A stretch of DNA of 64,000 bases. Origin: Escherichia phage MRostami-2023e. Positions 3,065 to 7,092 of the stretch are shown piece by piece. A model generated the notes under the pieces. That model was not told the DNA's origin. It saw nothing but the letters and a program-made list of their open reading frames with translations, and did not search any database. The position numbers and the translations under genes were made by a program. The stretch is taken from the sequence record OQ031495; one strand, 5' to 3'. Numbering within the stretch: position 1 is the first letter of the stretch; the number at the start of each line of letters is the position of its first letter.

Positions 3065-3667
3065 ATGCGAAACCAAAATAATGATATTGACTCAATGTTC
3101 GAAGAGTTCCGAGATAAGGTAAATCCACCTACGTCTTTAGTTGATTCATTACGATATGTTGCAACTGGGCGTAAATGGTACTGGTCGTCTTCTTATGAGA
3201 CTACTGAGAAAACAGCTAGCCATAGCAGAAAATCTTTATTAGCCCCAGGTATTATGATTCATGATATCGGAGCTATTGCTAAACTAGTTGCAGACCATGA
3301 TATTAGATTCACCGATTTCGTTGCTCCTACATGGTCTGTTTGTTGTTTAAACACCGAATGGGAATATATCAGCGAACGCTCTAAAGATTATTATGGTTTT
3401 AGAGATAAGCTTTTAAGGTCTAACATGTTTTATATTGATACAGAAGTTCTGGTCAATAATAAAAAATACTACTTCACTTTAATCGTCGATTCTGAAACTA
3501 TGTATGAAGGCAAGCCTTTGCTTAAAAGAGTTGATGCTTTAAGTGCTATTGATGCGCTTTATGAAACTATGGTTGTTAGTCCTAATTTCACTAACAATTT
3601 AATCCTTGAGCAATTTATTATGGAATGTAGAGAATATGTCAAAGCCAACCCTATACATGCCAAGTAA
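3065..3667 (+). CDS. hypothetical protein (200 aa)
   Basis: AAAGGAG Shine-Dalgarno plus ATG. Confidence 0.55.
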   Translation: MRNQNNDIDSMFEEFRDKVNPPTSLVDSLRYVATGRKWYWSSSYETTEKTASHSRKSLLAPGIMIHDIGAIAKLVADHDIRFTDFVAPTWSVCCLNTEWEYISERSKDYYGFRDKLLRSNMFYIDTEVLVNNKKYYFTLIVDSETMYEGKPLLKRVDALSAIDALYETMVVSPNFTNNLILEQFIMECREYVKANPIHAK

Positions 3668-4031
3668 GCCCTGGGCATACGAATACAAACGTAAATTAAT
3701 CCCAAACGAAGTACTATTTGGCCCTATTTTAGCTTTAGCATTTTTAATCTTTATGATTATAGGAGCTGTTTTAGATTCCAATAAAGTTATATCGTCCGAT
3801 GCAGCGTTTTCATTAATGTTCGTCGCACCACTTATTGTACCGTTTTTATTAATGCCTATTAATTGGGTAGGATATTGGCACCAAGGCCGTCATCACAGAG
3901 CTCGAGTTCGTGAGTGGAAAGTTCAGTGCGCAAAAGCCCAAGCTCAGTATGATGAAGCTGTTAAAAAGTATGAATATGAAGAAGCTATGGAATTCGTTAA
4001 GGAGATAAGATGCAAAAGCCACAACTCTTAA
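3636..4031 (+). CDS. small membrane protein; member of paralogous family with conserved C-terminal tail
   Basis: Two hydrophobic segments; C-terminal EFVKEIRCK related to the ENFIKECR tail of paralogs; start uncertain (alternative ATG at 3654). Confidence 0.45.
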   Translation: MSKPTLYMPSKPWAYEYKRKLIPNEVLFGPILALAFLIFMIIGAVLDSNKVISSDAAFSLMFVAPLIVPFLLMPINWVGYWHQGRHHRARVREWKVQCAKAQAQYDEAVKKYEYEEAMEFVKEIRCKSHNS

Positions 4032-4369
4032 CCGTATGGCCTTCTCTTGGTGAGAACATTCTAATTTTTATTATGAGTATTGGCATGGGATTTGCCTTTG
4101 GATTAGTTGGATTTCTTATTGACGGCGTTGTGTTAGGATTTATAGGGAACACTGGTGGATTCACAGACCAATGGCAGGACTTACGGTATACCCAAGCCTT
4201 TGCATCCATCGCATCCTTTTGTACTGTAGTCTATTTTTACTACGATTTTATAAACCGTAACAAGAAAAATAAAAAGGTTTACGCTTCTCAAATGGTTAGT
4301 TATAATGAACTCCTAGCTAGACGTGAAAATGAAACAATCGAAAACTTTATTAAGGAATGTAGAAAATGA
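4010..4369 (+). CDS. small membrane protein, paralog family (C-terminal ENFIKECRK)
   Basis: AAGGAG Shine-Dalgarno; hydrophobic N-terminal half; conserved C-terminal motif. Confidence 0.6.
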   Translation: MQKPQLLTVWPSLGENILIFIMSIGMGFAFGLVGFLIDGVVLGFIGNTGGFTDQWQDLRYTQAFASIASFCTVVYFYYDFINRNKKNKKVYASQMVSYNELLARRENETIENFIKECRK

Positions 4370-4671
4370 GTAAGATTATTGAAATTAAAGTACCAGAGTT
4401 TAATGATGCCAAATCCGCTTCAGACGCAATTTATAAACTTCTGAATCAAGCTGAACGTATCGAAGAAGAAGCAACAAAGATCGCAGACCAATATGCCGTA
4501 TCATTTTCTGTAGGTGATTATGGTAGCGGTCGTACTTATTATCCTAAGGGTGAAATCGTATCCCAGTGGATGAAAGATGAAATTGAAAATAATGGTGGCG
4601 ATGTTAAGCGTGAAGGTAATGGTTACGTTATTACTGAAGGTGCTTGGGTTTCGTCTTCTGCGTTGTGCTAA
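4366..4671 (+). CDS. hypothetical protein, first of three tandem paralogs (C-terminal GAWVSSSALC)
   Basis: ATGA overlap with upstream gene; shared C-terminal GWVSSSxxC motif. Confidence 0.6.
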   Translation: MSKIIEIKVPEFNDAKSASDAIYKLLNQAERIEEEATKIADQYAVSFSVGDYGSGRTYYPKGEIVSQWMKDEIENNGGDVKREGNGYVITEGAWVSSSALC

Positions 4672-4680
4672 GGAATCATT

Positions 4681-4953
4681 ATGTCTAAAGAACAAACCGA
4701 ACTGGCTGAAGCTGTAGCAAAAATCTATGCAGCTATTGAGGCTGCCAAAGAAATTGCTGATAAACAAAACACAACATTCAACTTGTACCCAGCTTATGGT
4801 ATGGGTGGAACCTATCATTCACCCGGACAGCTTAAAGCCGATCTTGAACGTTGTACAAAAAACGGCTATGCTGAATGGGCCGACGTTTACCAATACGACT
4901 ACAACCTGAGCCTCGAAACTGGTGGTTGGGTTGCATCTTCTCACACTTGCTAA
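4681..4953 (+). CDS. hypothetical protein, tandem paralog 2 (C-terminal GGWVASSHTC)
   Basis: Shared C-terminal motif and helical N-terminus. Confidence 0.6.
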   Translation: MSKEQTELAEAVAKIYAAIEAAKEIADKQNTTFNLYPAYGMGGTYHSPGQLKADLERCTKNGYAEWADVYQYDYNLSLETGGWVASSHTC

Positions 4954-4962
4954 GGAAACCAT

Positions 4963-5160
4963 ATGTCTCGTGAATTGGATTGTGCTGTACGTACGGCAGT
5001 AGCTGCTCTGGAAAACCTGTTCCAAATTGCAACAGAAGAACGCGAAGAAGTTACATTATGGATTGAAGATAACGCAGGTCTGAATCTCCAGGACGCGATC
5101 TCATTATCCCACAATAGTATCACTGTTCAAGGCTGGGTATCATCTAGTTATTCTTGCTAA
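4963..5160 (+). CDS. hypothetical protein, tandem paralog 3 (C-terminal QGWVSSSYSC)
   Basis: Shared C-terminal motif. Confidence 0.55.
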   Translation: MSRELDCAVRTAVAALENLFQIATEEREEVTLWIEDNAGLNLQDAISLSHNSITVQGWVSSSYSC

Positions 5161-5164
5161 AACA

Positions 5165-5195
5165 GTTTACAACAAGATAGGGCTATGTTATAGTA
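5165..5195 (+). promoter_or_regulatory. T4-type early promoter candidate
   Basis: GTTTACA, 18-nt spacer, TGtTATAGT; palindrome ataggact/agtcctat around the -10. Confidence 0.5.
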
Positions 5196-5222
5196 GTCCT
5201 ATCAAATTAAATGGAGTTCACA

Positions 5223-5462
5223 ATGATTTATTACGAAAGTATCGGAACCGAAGTAGTTGCTAAAACTATTACTCGTGAAAAGTTTGCAAAGATATTCGAT
5301 ATGCGTTATAAAAAATCTGAACACAAAGGCATCCGATTCGAAGATGCGCACTGTACAATTTGCCCTTATAATGAAGACATAAACGGTACAATCGTTCCAT
5401 TGGTAGAGGCTTCACATGTCGACCTCTGGGATGAATATGATATCGCATGTCGTGAAATTTAA
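5223..5462 (+). CDS. hypothetical protein (79 aa)
   Basis: GGAG Shine-Dalgarno upstream of ATG at 5223. Confidence 0.5.
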   Translation: MIYYESIGTEVVAKTITREKFAKIFDMRYKKSEHKGIRFEDAHCTICPYNEDINGTIVPLVEASHVDLWDEYDIACREI

Positions 5463-5490: not shown

Positions 5491-6447
5491 ATGATGTTAG
5501 TTATTGGTTCTCGTGCACTTCACTATCACGGTCTTATTGATTCTAGCGCTATCAAAAATAGTGATTGGGACTTTATTGCGGACCAATGTTCTTGGAATGC
5601 ATTCAAAAATCAAATGATGGGTGTATATGTCCACCAAGATAACCCTGATGTCCAAGTTTTCAAATGCTTCCATAATGGACGCGAAACTCATTTTGAAGCA
5701 TATATTGTTCCGGCAATCACTAACGTTCGCGAACTAGTCGGTGAACTCACTCCTGAAGATTTCACGTCTTCTTATGACCTTTTAAAATACGCCAAGAAAA
5801 ATTTGACTAAAGACCGTTTGAACGGGTTTTACTGGGCAACTCCCGAGATATGTCTTGCAATTAAGATGTCTCATCGTTTCAAGAAAAATAATCCATTCTT
5901 TTTAAAGACTATGAACCATATTCAGTATCTTCGTGGTAAAGGTGTTACACTGAACGATGAACTTACTGAAATTATGCTGAAACGCCAGAAAGAAACCTTG
6001 AACTATGCTCACCCAGTTCTTGACACTTCTAAAAGTGCGTTCTTTAAAGATGACATCTATACATATGACCATGATACTATTCACGAAGCCATTGCGTTAA
6101 CAGGCCGCCCAGCGTATACATTTTATATGAAAGACGGTTCTGAAGTCATGACCTCACGTGAGAAGTTCGAATCGTTACCAGAAATGGTCAAATTGGCCGG
6201 TGTATATGAAGAATCATGTGTACTAGCATTAGAACGTTCTCAGATTCCTAATGACTTTAAAATTAACCCTGAAGCCAGTTTCATGATGGCATTAGAAAAA
6301 GTCTGCACAAGCATCACCTCCGGTTGGTTCCGTGAATACGCATACGAGAACTACAGCAAAGTTGTAAGTATGTATCATAAGCTCGGCAAAAATGATTACA
6401 TTAAACGGTTTAAAGAAAATTTTCATATGGTGAAACCTTTCAAATAA
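5491..6447 (+). CDS. hypothetical protein (318 aa), possible minimal nucleotidyltransferase fold
   Basis: N-terminal GS...(15 aa)...DWDF pattern resembles Pol-beta-type NTase hG[GS]/DxD motif; weak. Confidence 0.5.
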   Translation: MMLVIGSRALHYHGLIDSSAIKNSDWDFIADQCSWNAFKNQMMGVYVHQDNPDVQVFKCFHNGRETHFEAYIVPAITNVRELVGELTPEDFTSSYDLLKYAKKNLTKDRLNGFYWATPEICLAIKMSHRFKKNNPFFLKTMNHIQYLRGKGVTLNDELTEIMLKRQKETLNYAHPVLDTSKSAFFKDDIYTYDHDTIHEAIALTGRPAYTFYMKDGSEVMTSREKFESLPEMVKLAGVYEESCVLALERSQIPNDFKINPEASFMMALEKVCTSITSGWFREYAYENYSKVVSMYHKLGKNDYIKRFKENFHMVKPFK

Positions 6448-6728
6448 CTTCACAAAACTGTTTACANNNNNNNNNNNNNNNNNNNNNNNNNNNNNNNNNN
6501 NNNNNNNNNNNNNNNNNNNNNNNNNNNNNNNNNNNNNNNNNNNNNNNNNNNNNNNNNNNNNNNNNNNNNNNNNNNNNNNNNNNNNNNNNNNNNNNNNNNN
6601 NNNNNNNNNNNNNNNNNNNNNNNNNNNNNNNNNNNNNNNNNNNNNNNNNNNNNNNNNNNNNNNNNNNNNNNNNNNNNNNNNNNNNNNNNNNNNNNNNNNN
6701 NNNNNNNNNNNNNNNNNNNNNNNNNNNN

Positions 6729-6760
6729 GTTTACACAATTATAGGACTATGTTATAGTAG
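6729..6760 (+). promoter_or_regulatory. T4-type early promoter candidate
   Basis: GTTTACA ... TGtTATAGT immediately after masked region; same palindrome as at 5165. Confidence 0.45.
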
Positions 6761-6786: not shown

Positions 6787-7092
6787 ATGAAATTAACAGA
6801 AACCAATCGAATTGGTCTTTTAACAATACTTGCATCACCTTTTTACGCAACTCTTTCTGTTGCGGTATTACAAAAGGCTTACAGTATGGATGGTGTTCCT
6901 GGTTGTATATTTTTATCACCATTTTTGCTATTCGTTGGAGCTTTGTTATTATATGCCACGTCTGGTTTCGACAATAATGTCTGGGTCAATTATAAACGTA
7001 AATTGTCTGAAGAAGAACACGCAGAAGCTCGTAAAAAAGCTATTGAATCTACCAATCTAGAAAATTTCATTAAAGAATGTCGAGGAAAATAA
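6787..7092 (+). CDS. small membrane protein, paralog family (C-terminal ENFIKECRGK)
   Basis: Two TM-like segments; conserved C-terminal motif. Confidence 0.6.
   Translation: MKLTETNRIGLLTILASPFYATLSVAVLQKAYSMDGVPGCIFLSPFLLFVGALLLYATSGFDNNVWVNYKRKLSEEEHAEARKKAIESTNLENFIKECRGK

Follow-up and report, generated by a model that had tools for sequence, protein, structure and literature searches.

MenT toxins add nucleotides to the 3' ends of tRNA. Within this group MenT1 is blocked by an adjacently encoded protein of 68 amino acids (aa), and the C-terminus of MenA1 is dispensable (PMC10435456); in a second pair, the nucleotidyltransferase (NTase) MntA is reported to polyadenylylate its partner HepT (PMC7641770). 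A locus that invites comparison with both pairs lies in Escherichia phage MRostami-2023e (OQ031495), of which a stretch of 64,000 nucleotides (nt), hereafter the window, was analysed. Three consecutive small open reading frames (ORF1, ORF2 and ORF3, positions 4366-5160) encode proteins that share a C-terminal tail, W..SS..C, and are followed on the same strand by the gene for a 318-aa enzyme. Examined across viral genomes, the tail proteins and this enzyme gene are almost certainly associated as a two-part module.

An earlier note, made from the letters of the DNA, had drawn attention to the three small genes and their tails, but overlooked the decisive context: they are the partner half of a conserved module whose other half is the predicted nucleotidyltransferase gene at 5491-6447. 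The module comprises one to six small acidic, predicted cytoplasmic proteins bearing the tail E/G-G-W-x-[S/A/P]-S-S-x-x-Cys-COOH, and then a single predicted nucleotidyltransferase encoded on the same strand.

Linkage of tail proteins to a nucleotidyltransferase gene

In the forward direction, a degenerate DNA pattern for YGMGGTY returned 73 viral loci, of which 30 were discarded as chance matches and 43 retained on account of a strong match to the tail-protein family. Sufficient flanking sequence was available at 33 of these 43 loci, and all 33 carry a DUF7277-DUF7275 gene on the same strand and at a distance of no more than 2.5 kilobases (kb). The enzyme gene stands downstream of the array in 32 of the 33, and within a six-member array in the remaining locus (L037). 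The window itself shows the same arrangement within the same distance, ORF3 ending at 5160 and the enzyme gene starting at 5491 on the same strand.

In the reverse direction, 80 viral loci were collected from the enzyme alignment with the peptide patterns GVYEE[STA]CV and KVCTSITS. Members of the tail family detectable by hidden Markov model (HMM) were found upstream of the enzyme gene at 72 of the 80, with one member at 22 loci, two at 30, three at 11, four at seven and five at two; three more enzyme loci have divergent ORFs ending in W..SS..C, which raises the count to at least 75 of 80. When the enzymes are grouped into lineages at 70% identity, partners are present in every member of 24 of the 26, the lineages that have no tailed partner being those of L117/118/120/148 and of phage CC31 (L097). 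All-vs-all clustering of the neighbouring ORFs revealed no other family that recurs across lineages, the sole match being an antisense artefact inside the enzyme gene. The 83-aa ORF that separates the array from the enzyme gene in the window was considered as a third component and set aside: it is present at 12 of the 80 enzyme loci, all from Tevenvirinae, and its Cys residues are not conserved.

The linkage is close to obligate across very distant phages, including T4-like phages of E. coli, Phapecoctavirus, phages of Aeromonas, Acinetobacter and Pseudomonas, Mx1, and jumbo contigs of ~360 kb. Only 22 nt separate the family member of Myxococcus phage Mx1 from the gene downstream of it, which encodes a 307-aa DUF7277+DUF7275 protein with the same architecture as the enzyme ORF of the window. 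In Phapecoctavirus nieznany the enzyme gene is preceded by three tailed ORFs, and in Acinetobacter phage Apostate, whose enzyme is the only homolog annotated as a 'putative nucleotidyltransferase', by two to three. Upstream ORFs with other bodies also carry tail-like ends, such as ...FWYSSSMQNC, ...DNWSSSSAHC and ...WDDSECY, the last of these closing a 57-aa acidic ORF in Pseudoalteromonas phage J2-1. A short class of enzyme homologs (251-263 aa; from Gordonia, Streptomyces and two Vibrio phages) has no tailed partner and carries Thr or Ile for Cys272. In the IMG/VR contigs L117, L118, L120 and L148, a 177-178-aa ORF lies upstream instead of a tailed ORF (~3200-4930), the enzyme gene of L120 being split. 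The enzymes of these four contigs have Arg for the otherwise invariant Trp279 in the KVCTSITSGWFRE motif, a position that may mark the tail-binding site.

To assess how widely the tail proteins themselves occur, 1.84 billion representative proteins were searched exhaustively with the family profile, which yielded 657 clusters at E<=1e-3, 104 of them at E<=1e-10; homologs with the motif therefore exist well beyond this phage. Nearly all matches are 65-175 aa long and extend to the last residue of the protein. Named carriers include Myxococcus phage Mx1, Pseudomonas phages REC and COT4, Aeromonas phage CC2, Enterobacter and Klebsiella T4-like phages, and contigs of ~360 kb. The tail pattern consists of W, any residue, one of [SAPT], S, S or T (optional), any two residues and C, with at most one residue beyond, and it fits 189 of a set of 197 family-size proteins. 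Residues were tallied over the 144 proteins of the representative search that fit this pattern, so that Trp at -7, Ser at -4 and Cys at position 0, each at 100%, are required by the pattern and amount to selection rather than a test. At the other positions, -8 is Gly in 64%, -5 is Ser, Ala or Pro with one exception, and -3 is Ser in 95% and Thr in 5%. The protein ends at the Cys in 137 of the 144 and one residue beyond it in the other seven; in 92 it has no other Cys. These figures uphold the view that a C-terminal motif ending in Cys is a functionally important feature. For present purposes the tail family is defined as proteins of 60-175 aa ending in W-x-[SAP]-S-[ST]-x-x-C with the Cys at or next to the C-terminus, and ORF1-ORF3 all qualify.

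The spacing of the tail is not wholly rigid. The largest array (L037, 6081-9089 of IMGVR_UViG_3300044693_000036) places five tailed ORFs before the enzyme gene and a sixth after it, with unusually varied tails (REGEWMSSSDQC, YWDWDGWEGSAC, TVTGWTNSSTYC, ETDGWKNSSSYC, YHEDGGWYSSHC and CYTGWQPSAGTC), and this variation indicates that the distances between W, SS and the terminal C can flex. Repeats of the motif are also found internally, within an acidic linker (P0113; L103 3709-3954; L159 1913-2131), for example ...WESSSEGWESSSEGWVSSSSQC, ...WNSSSCYGED...SSWVQSSC and ...WQSSSCYGEG...VWHSSSC, and the W-x-S-S-S unit seems able to duplicate.

Several lines of evidence bear on the nature of the three genes in the window. 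Among its 376 ORFs of at least 40 aa, the W..SS..C C-terminus occurs in three, namely ORF1-ORF3, and so is no chance match. The Ser codons of the tail vary between copies (TCG/TCT/TCA/AGT), which places the conservation at the protein rather than the DNA level, and changes between the array and its close Mosigvirus relatives are mostly synonymous, with seven synonymous and no non-synonymous differences for ORF1 against L077 and seven synonymous and one non-synonymous for ORF3 against RB69. Taken together, the restriction of the tail to these ORFs, the varied Ser codons and the predominance of synonymous change identify real coding genes under purifying selection; the span, lengths, tails and coupling that the earlier note had given for them are all exact, and all three lie on the plus strand.

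Its description of a paralogous triplet stands in part. Between ORF1 and ORF2 the homology spans the entire body (BLASTP E 1e-4), both belong to phrog_899 (matches at 1.3e-22 and 1.4e-18, respectively), and they have in common the motifs ADxYGxxF and YG[SM]GxTYY and a body composed of a long helix and an F-x-F-x2-3-YG[MS]G-x-TYY hairpin; on this homology they are true paralogs. ORF3 does not belong with them: it matches a separate family, phrog_4882, over its full length at 7.7e-37, it aligns with the main family in hhalign over 12 columns of tail only (probability 89%, E 2e-6), and it scores E=0.029 against the main-family HMM when the 65-aa class is left out. A fourth class, ending in ...FWYSSSM(Q/S)(N/R)C, occurs at loci of the Karamvirus/Slopekvirus type. 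What the members of the array share, as judged from these alignments, is the tail, set on at least two unrelated bodies. The earlier note was right to place the phage among the Tevenvirinae. The tandem duplication that it supposed, however, was not a recent local event, since each gene has its own orthologs of ~55-65% identity in other Tevenvirinae genera, and the paralogs within the array are 24-34% identical to one another; this difference speaks for an old, orthologously maintained array.

The predicted properties of the proteins narrow the possible roles of the tail. The family is acidic, with a median isoelectric point (pI) of 4.46 (4.6 for ORF1). A helical N-terminus had been proposed, and the AlphaFold2 (AF2) model of ORF2, with a mean predicted local distance difference test (pLDDT) score of 92.5, places a helix at residues 3-29, followed by strands at 32-38 and 41-46, helices at 48-60 and 66-74, a strand at 81-85 and a helix at 86-89. 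The N-termini are hydrophilic (MSKIIEIKVPEF..., MSKEQTEL... and MSRELD...), and the proteins have neither a lipobox nor a signal peptide, the Cys being the very last residue rather than in a CaaX position. The lipid-linked tail suggested earlier is therefore unlikely for these acidic, soluble-looking proteins, as is a structural disulfide in a cytoplasmic protein; the terminal Cys may still act as a thiol or in binding a metal.

Scans of ORF1-ORF3 and ten distant relatives against Pfam, NCBIfam and PADLOC gave nothing above noise, and the family profile met only chance matches among the sequences of the PDB, with no sequence-related solved structure. No Pfam or NCBIfam HEPN match (Rx4-6H) was obtained for the small proteins, and ORF1 lacks His altogether. 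Four giant high-scoring matches (P0058, P0096, P0109 and P0180) were rejected as cadherin-repeat proteins in which '...VDDGSGNTY...' strand-turn repeats sum to a false score. The labels 'tail completion protein' and 'prohead scaffold' given to some homologs are unsupported and look like annotation spill-over, and the label 'sulfurtransferase' in phage vB_Eco_F27 refers to e.4 and not to the small-gene array.

The enzyme, its distribution and the setting of the locus

The partner of the tail proteins is predicted to be an intact nucleotidyltransferase. Among 58 homologs of 39-97% identity, the invariant residues include G6, S7, D25, D27, E69, K125, H128, R165, E168, Y172 and H174 in the N-terminal part and H194, D195, H198, E240, E241, E248, R249, K270, C272, S274, T276, S277, G278 and R281 in the C-terminal part, lists that are not exhaustive. 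In the AF2 model (pLDDT 92.4), G6-S7 lies between strand 1 and helix 1, D25-x-D27 at the start of strand 2 and E69 in a later strand, so that, on the model, this is the canonical Pol-beta nucleotidyltransferase arrangement with its catalytic signature intact; DUF7277 is read as the Pol-beta catalytic core and DUF7275 as a conserved helical domain. The closest solved structure is that of MenT1 (fold-similarity score 10.1), followed by ANT(2'') at 8.6, TglT/MenT3 at 8.5, MenT4 at 7.8, TM1012 at 7.7 and LnuA at 7.2, and the three-dimensional fold is thus of the MenT/AbiEii kind. At the level of sequence, in contrast, the enzyme matches DUF7275 and DUF7277 alone in Pfam at E<=0.1, with no PF08843/DUF1814, and its profile has no MenT match among PDB sequences. 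A stretch resembling motif III (K125...R129...K139-T-M-x-D) was recognised by eye only. By these comparisons the enzyme falls outside MenT/AbiEii (DUF1814) in sequence and is similar to it in predicted fold.

The enzyme was found in 733 of 50,697 deposited phage genomes, and its clusters at 90% identity number more than 2,100. Its carriers include phages of the T4 type that infect E. coli, Klebsiella, Enterobacter, Acinetobacter or Aeromonas, along with Phapecoctavirus, Pseudomonas phages, Mx1 and jumbo phages. Among 185,579 bacterial and archaeal species, represented by one genome each, there are five matches, all on contigs of metagenome-assembled genomes (MAGs; 2-167 kb). The contrast between 733 phage records and five MAG contigs shows the module to be essentially restricted to phages.

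Identity over the array region is 100% to Escherichia phage vB_EQ1 and 96-98% to a large number of Mosigvirus genomes, RB69 among them, and by this measure the window is an RB69-like Mosigvirus. In RB69 the counterpart of the array lies between e.3 and e.2, where ORF2 and ORF3 are equivalent to RB69ORF137c and RB69ORF136c, respectively, and ORF1 to RB69ORF139c and ORF138c together. A 1-nt indel that sets the 2003 RB69 record apart from the window and from other Mosigvirus genomes divides the ortholog of ORF1 (RB69 AY303349 69734-70040; L001 4767-5073) into an ORF139c of 71 aa and an ORF138c of 33 aa, and is either a sequencing error or a strain-specific frameshift.

The genes of the array are tightly coupled: the e.3 stop codon overlaps the ORF1 start (ATGA), the spacers between ORF1 and ORF2 and between ORF2 and ORF3 are 9 nt each, and an AAGGA Shine-Dalgarno sequence lies 6-9 nt 5' of every start codon. 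The junction tail-TAA-GGAA-N-ATG-TCT is itself a repeated sequence in the array. Promoter-like sites flank the array (Table 1), both of the T-even early type TTTAC[AG]-17 nt-TATA[AG]T, of which the region holds 19 against 16.2 expected, and the upstream one may be an early promoter for the small-gene array. No tRNA genes were found across the entire window.

Table 1. Positions of the module genes, their tail motifs and neighbouring features in the window
Feature	Position	Strand	Description
e.3	4010-4369		Member of a second small-protein family
Promoter-like site	4278-4306	+	TTTACG-17 nt-TATAAT; within the end of e.3, 60 nt upstream of ORF1; consensus match only
ORF1	4366-4671	+	101 aa; C-terminus ...TEGAWVSSSALC (GAWVSSSALC); class A, YGSGRTYYP hairpin
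ORF1 tail motif	4639-4668	+	G-A-W-V-S-S-S-A-L-C; stop codon directly after; repeat families D1 and D2
ORF2	4681-4953	+	90 aa; C-terminus ...ETGGWVASSHTC (GGWVASSHTC); class B, YGMGGTYH hairpin
ORF2 tail motif	4921-4950	+	G-G-W-V-A-S-S-H-T-C
ORF3	4963-5160	+	65 aa; C-terminus ...TVQGWVSSSYSC (QGWVSSSYSC); separate family phrog_4882
ORF3 tail motif	5128-5157	+	Q-G-W-V-S-S-S-Y-S-C
Promoter-like site	5166-5194	+	TTTACA-17 nt-TATAGT with upstream TG; between ORF3 and the next gene; consensus match only
83-aa ORF	5211-5462	+	phrog_3723, RB69ORF135c; between array and enzyme gene; not module core
Enzyme gene	5491-6447	+	318-aa DUF7277-DUF7275 protein, RB69ORF134c; predicted nucleotidyltransferase of the Pol-beta fold; the C-terminal domain is large, helical and highly conserved
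Masked stretch	~6450-6740		Just 3' of the nucleotidyltransferase gene
RB69ORF133c	6787-7092		Member of the second small-protein family

The masked or undetermined stretch appears as a run of X on the minus strand and is unreadable up to the ORF at 6787. The second small-protein family, which flanks the module as e.3 and RB69ORF133c and has several members in CC31 (L097 3576-6363), consists of predicted membrane proteins with the C-terminus '...ENFIxECR(G)K' (recorded tails are ENFIKECRK, ENFIKECRGK, ENFIRMCRKN, FINDCRKARK, EEFITECRGK and ENFISRCRIKR), and forms a further set of dispersed paralogs whose C-terminal tail is conserved and contains Cys. Elsewhere, genes for the metabolism of RNA and of nicotinamide adenine dinucleotide (NAD) or ADP-ribose recur near the enzyme gene in unrelated phages, namely in Gordonia phage Lozinak (L157), Streptomyces phage Blueeyedbeauty (L158), Vibrio phages K470 (L167) and PG216 (L169), Mx1 (L002), L159 and L160. 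Examples are a tRNA cluster, an RNA ligase, Nampt with PRPP synthetase, Sir2 (twice), a Macro domain and a putative ADP-ribosyltransferase, a recurrence that may be coincidental accessory clustering or a functional hint.

Proposed docking and modification, and alternative roles of the tail

On balance, it is somewhat more likely than not that the tail proteins are cognate partners of the transferase and that the tail is what docks them to it. The transferase would recognise the tail, which would enter the catalytic cleft much as the 3' end of tRNA does in MenT, as substrate or pseudosubstrate. The invariant Ser hydroxyls would then be acceptor or pseudo-acceptor, and the terminal Cys with its carboxylate the anchor, possibly by a metal or thiol contact with the DUF7275 His/Cys cluster (H128, H174, H194, D195, H198 and C272). 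The low median pI of the family fits the occupation of a nucleic-acid- or NTP-binding cleft, and the short class, which lacks Cys272 along with the partner, gives a hint that the terminal Cys is anchored to the DUF7275 cluster.

As to what follows docking, the step preferred here is the transfer of a nucleoside monophosphate (NMP) onto a tail serine, in the manner of MntA on HepT or GlnD on PII, a proposal made by analogy and put forward tentatively. It is preferred for three reasons. Firstly, the hydroxyls at -4 and -3 are kept far more strictly than the plugging of a cleft needs. Secondly, several unrelated bodies carry the same tail, as would be expected of a modification tag. Thirdly, the placing of several substrates beside one enzyme is a common arrangement. 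In this way the activity of several different small effectors would be switched during early infection. More broadly, one may conceive of a phage protein-modification system in which a MenT-like transferase attaches a nucleotide to the tail, or clasps it through the Cys to the DUF7275 His/Cys cluster by a metal or thiol contact, the tail serving as a portable 'modify-me' tag, taken up by different effector bodies, and the modified proteins acting early on a conserved host target, conceivably the translation apparatus or nucleotide-based immunity; this wider picture is likewise tentative.

Several observations weigh against docking and modification. The AF2 monomer of ORF2 folds the tail onto the body (strand 81-85 and helix 86-89, pLDDT ~85), so that it is not obviously a free, flexible substrate. 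The existence of the enzyme in L117/118/120/148, in CC31 and in short-class homologs, all lacking tailed partners, implies that the small proteins are not its only substrate. Together, the partnerless lineages and the folded tail would fit an inhibitor or an adaptor role equally well. In addition, the peptide patterns with which enzyme loci were retrieved bias the sample towards the long class, the IMG/VR loci are redundant, for which reason counts were made by lineage, and in essence a single phylogenetic split underlies the correlation of Cys272 with the presence of partners.

Docking that only blocks the enzyme would be a close relative of NMP transfer, and it leads to the alternative that survives best, although it is itself improbable: that the small proteins are antitoxin-like inhibitors which plug the transferase without being modified, in the style of MenA1/MenT1 and with the logic of type II/IV systems, the substrate being the 3' ends of tRNA or other RNA and the proteins timing or buffering the activity. 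With small ORFs upstream of an NTase, the gene order matches that of MenA1-MenT1, and no solved structure is closer to the enzyme than that of MenT1 (PMC10435456). Among the evaluated loci the enzyme is seen without partners and the partners never without the enzyme, and acidic small proteins could mimic RNA. The module, however, is found almost only in virulent phages, which leaves no logic of addiction or abortive infection, and it is hard to explain why up to six inhibitors of one enzyme should each be conserved across genera. Strict retention of hydroxyls at -4 and -3 goes beyond simple plugging, and there is no sequence similarity to MenA1.

That one tail sits on different bodies, in one to six copies, could alternatively mean that the small proteins are adaptors or specificity subunits, each tethered to the transferase by its tail and steering it by its body to a different host or phage target; an enzyme that works without tail proteins in some lineages would suit such an arrangement. 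Diversified target recognition is, however, difficult to reconcile with a main body type (helix and YGMGGTYYP hairpin) whose strong conservation extends from the phages of Myxococcus to those of E. coli, and this alternative is unlikely.

Still less probable is a reading built on the metal, disulfide or lipid-linked tail of the earlier note, in which the tail is a self-contained site of this kind, the proteins act alone and their adjacency to the transferase is regulatory or historical. The near-invariance of the terminal Cys, the only Cys in 92 of the 144 proteins, is in keeping with it, as are promoter-like sites that flank the array separately from the enzyme gene. A single Cys per chain, however, cannot make a metal site alone; signal peptide, lipobox and CaaX geometry are lacking; and chance co-location is insufficient to account for linkage in 24 of 26 lineages with unrelated gene orders and no other conserved neighbour. 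Finally, although tandem precursor genes beside one modifying enzyme are the classic layout of ribosomally synthesised and post-translationally modified peptides (RiPPs), and S-S-x-x-C resembles, on our own reading, the Ser...Cys spacing of ring formation, it is very improbable that the Ser/Cys tail is converted (for instance to a lanthionine or AviCys-type cross-link, or to a conjugate of peptide and nucleotide) and set free as a small product with biological activity, given that a conserved tail on folded bodies (pLDDT 92.5) is the reverse of a conserved leader with a variable core, that no conserved dehydratase, cyclase, YcaO, radical-SAM enzyme, protease or exporter lies nearby, and that the phages are lytic.

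Significance and comparison with known systems

In the literature and database annotation searched, no description was found of the tail motif or of the pairing of small protein with enzyme, nor any paper mentioning these families. Apart from the lone 'putative nucleotidyltransferase' of Apostate, the components are annotated as 'hypothetical', and phrog_899, phrog_4882, phrog_2141, DUF7275 and DUF7277, which the window proteins match at E 1e-18 to 1e-148, are all annotated as of 'unknown function'. Treating the tail proteins and the MenT-like transferase as one unit turns these orphan genes into one testable hypothesis, in phages many of which are candidates for phage therapy. Should the tail prove to be the acceptor or anchor of nucleotidyl transfer, it would represent a new mode of protein NMPylation, and the module would be a phage-side counterpart of the bacterial MenT/AbiE/MNT systems of toxin-antitoxin and abortive-infection defence.

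The likeness to MenAT1 and AbiE lies in a short, unrelated cognate protein encoded directly upstream on the same strand, which in MenAT1 blocks the active-site face of the enzyme (PMC10435456, PMC7450476, PMC11375011). Unlike the MenT proteins, however, the window enzyme has no PF08843/DUF1814 match or PDB sequence match, carries D-x-D where MenT has S/T-x-D, and, at 318 aa, possesses an extra conserved region (~190-318) outside the MenT alignment. MenAT systems reside in bacterial chromosomes, whereas the present module occurs almost only in phages, and MenA1 is a single protein without the W-x-S-S-x-x-Cys tail that marks the one to six partners described here.

With MntA-HepT (a type VII toxin-antitoxin system) and GlnD-PII, the module would share an NTase of the Pol-beta superfamily and the placing of AMP or UMP on a side-chain hydroxyl of a small protein. 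In those systems the acceptor is a Tyr in a folded HEPN or PII domain, whereas here it would be a Ser-rich C-terminal tail; the small proteins of the window differ from HepT in having neither the HEPN Rx4-6H motif nor a Pfam match, nor, in ORF1, any His. The aminoglycoside and lincosamide nucleotidyltransferases ANT(2''), LnuA and LinB, for their part, have small-molecule antibiotics as substrates and are not paired with a small cognate protein, and an antibiotic-directed activity would have no evident rationale in a lytic phage. An NTase paired with a cognate small protein is accordingly a known kind of system, of which the phage-borne, multi-partner, Cys-tailed form was previously undescribed in the literature found. 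Taken together, sequence and model comparisons suggest that the module works most like MenA1-MenT1 or MntA-HepT and is a member of neither.

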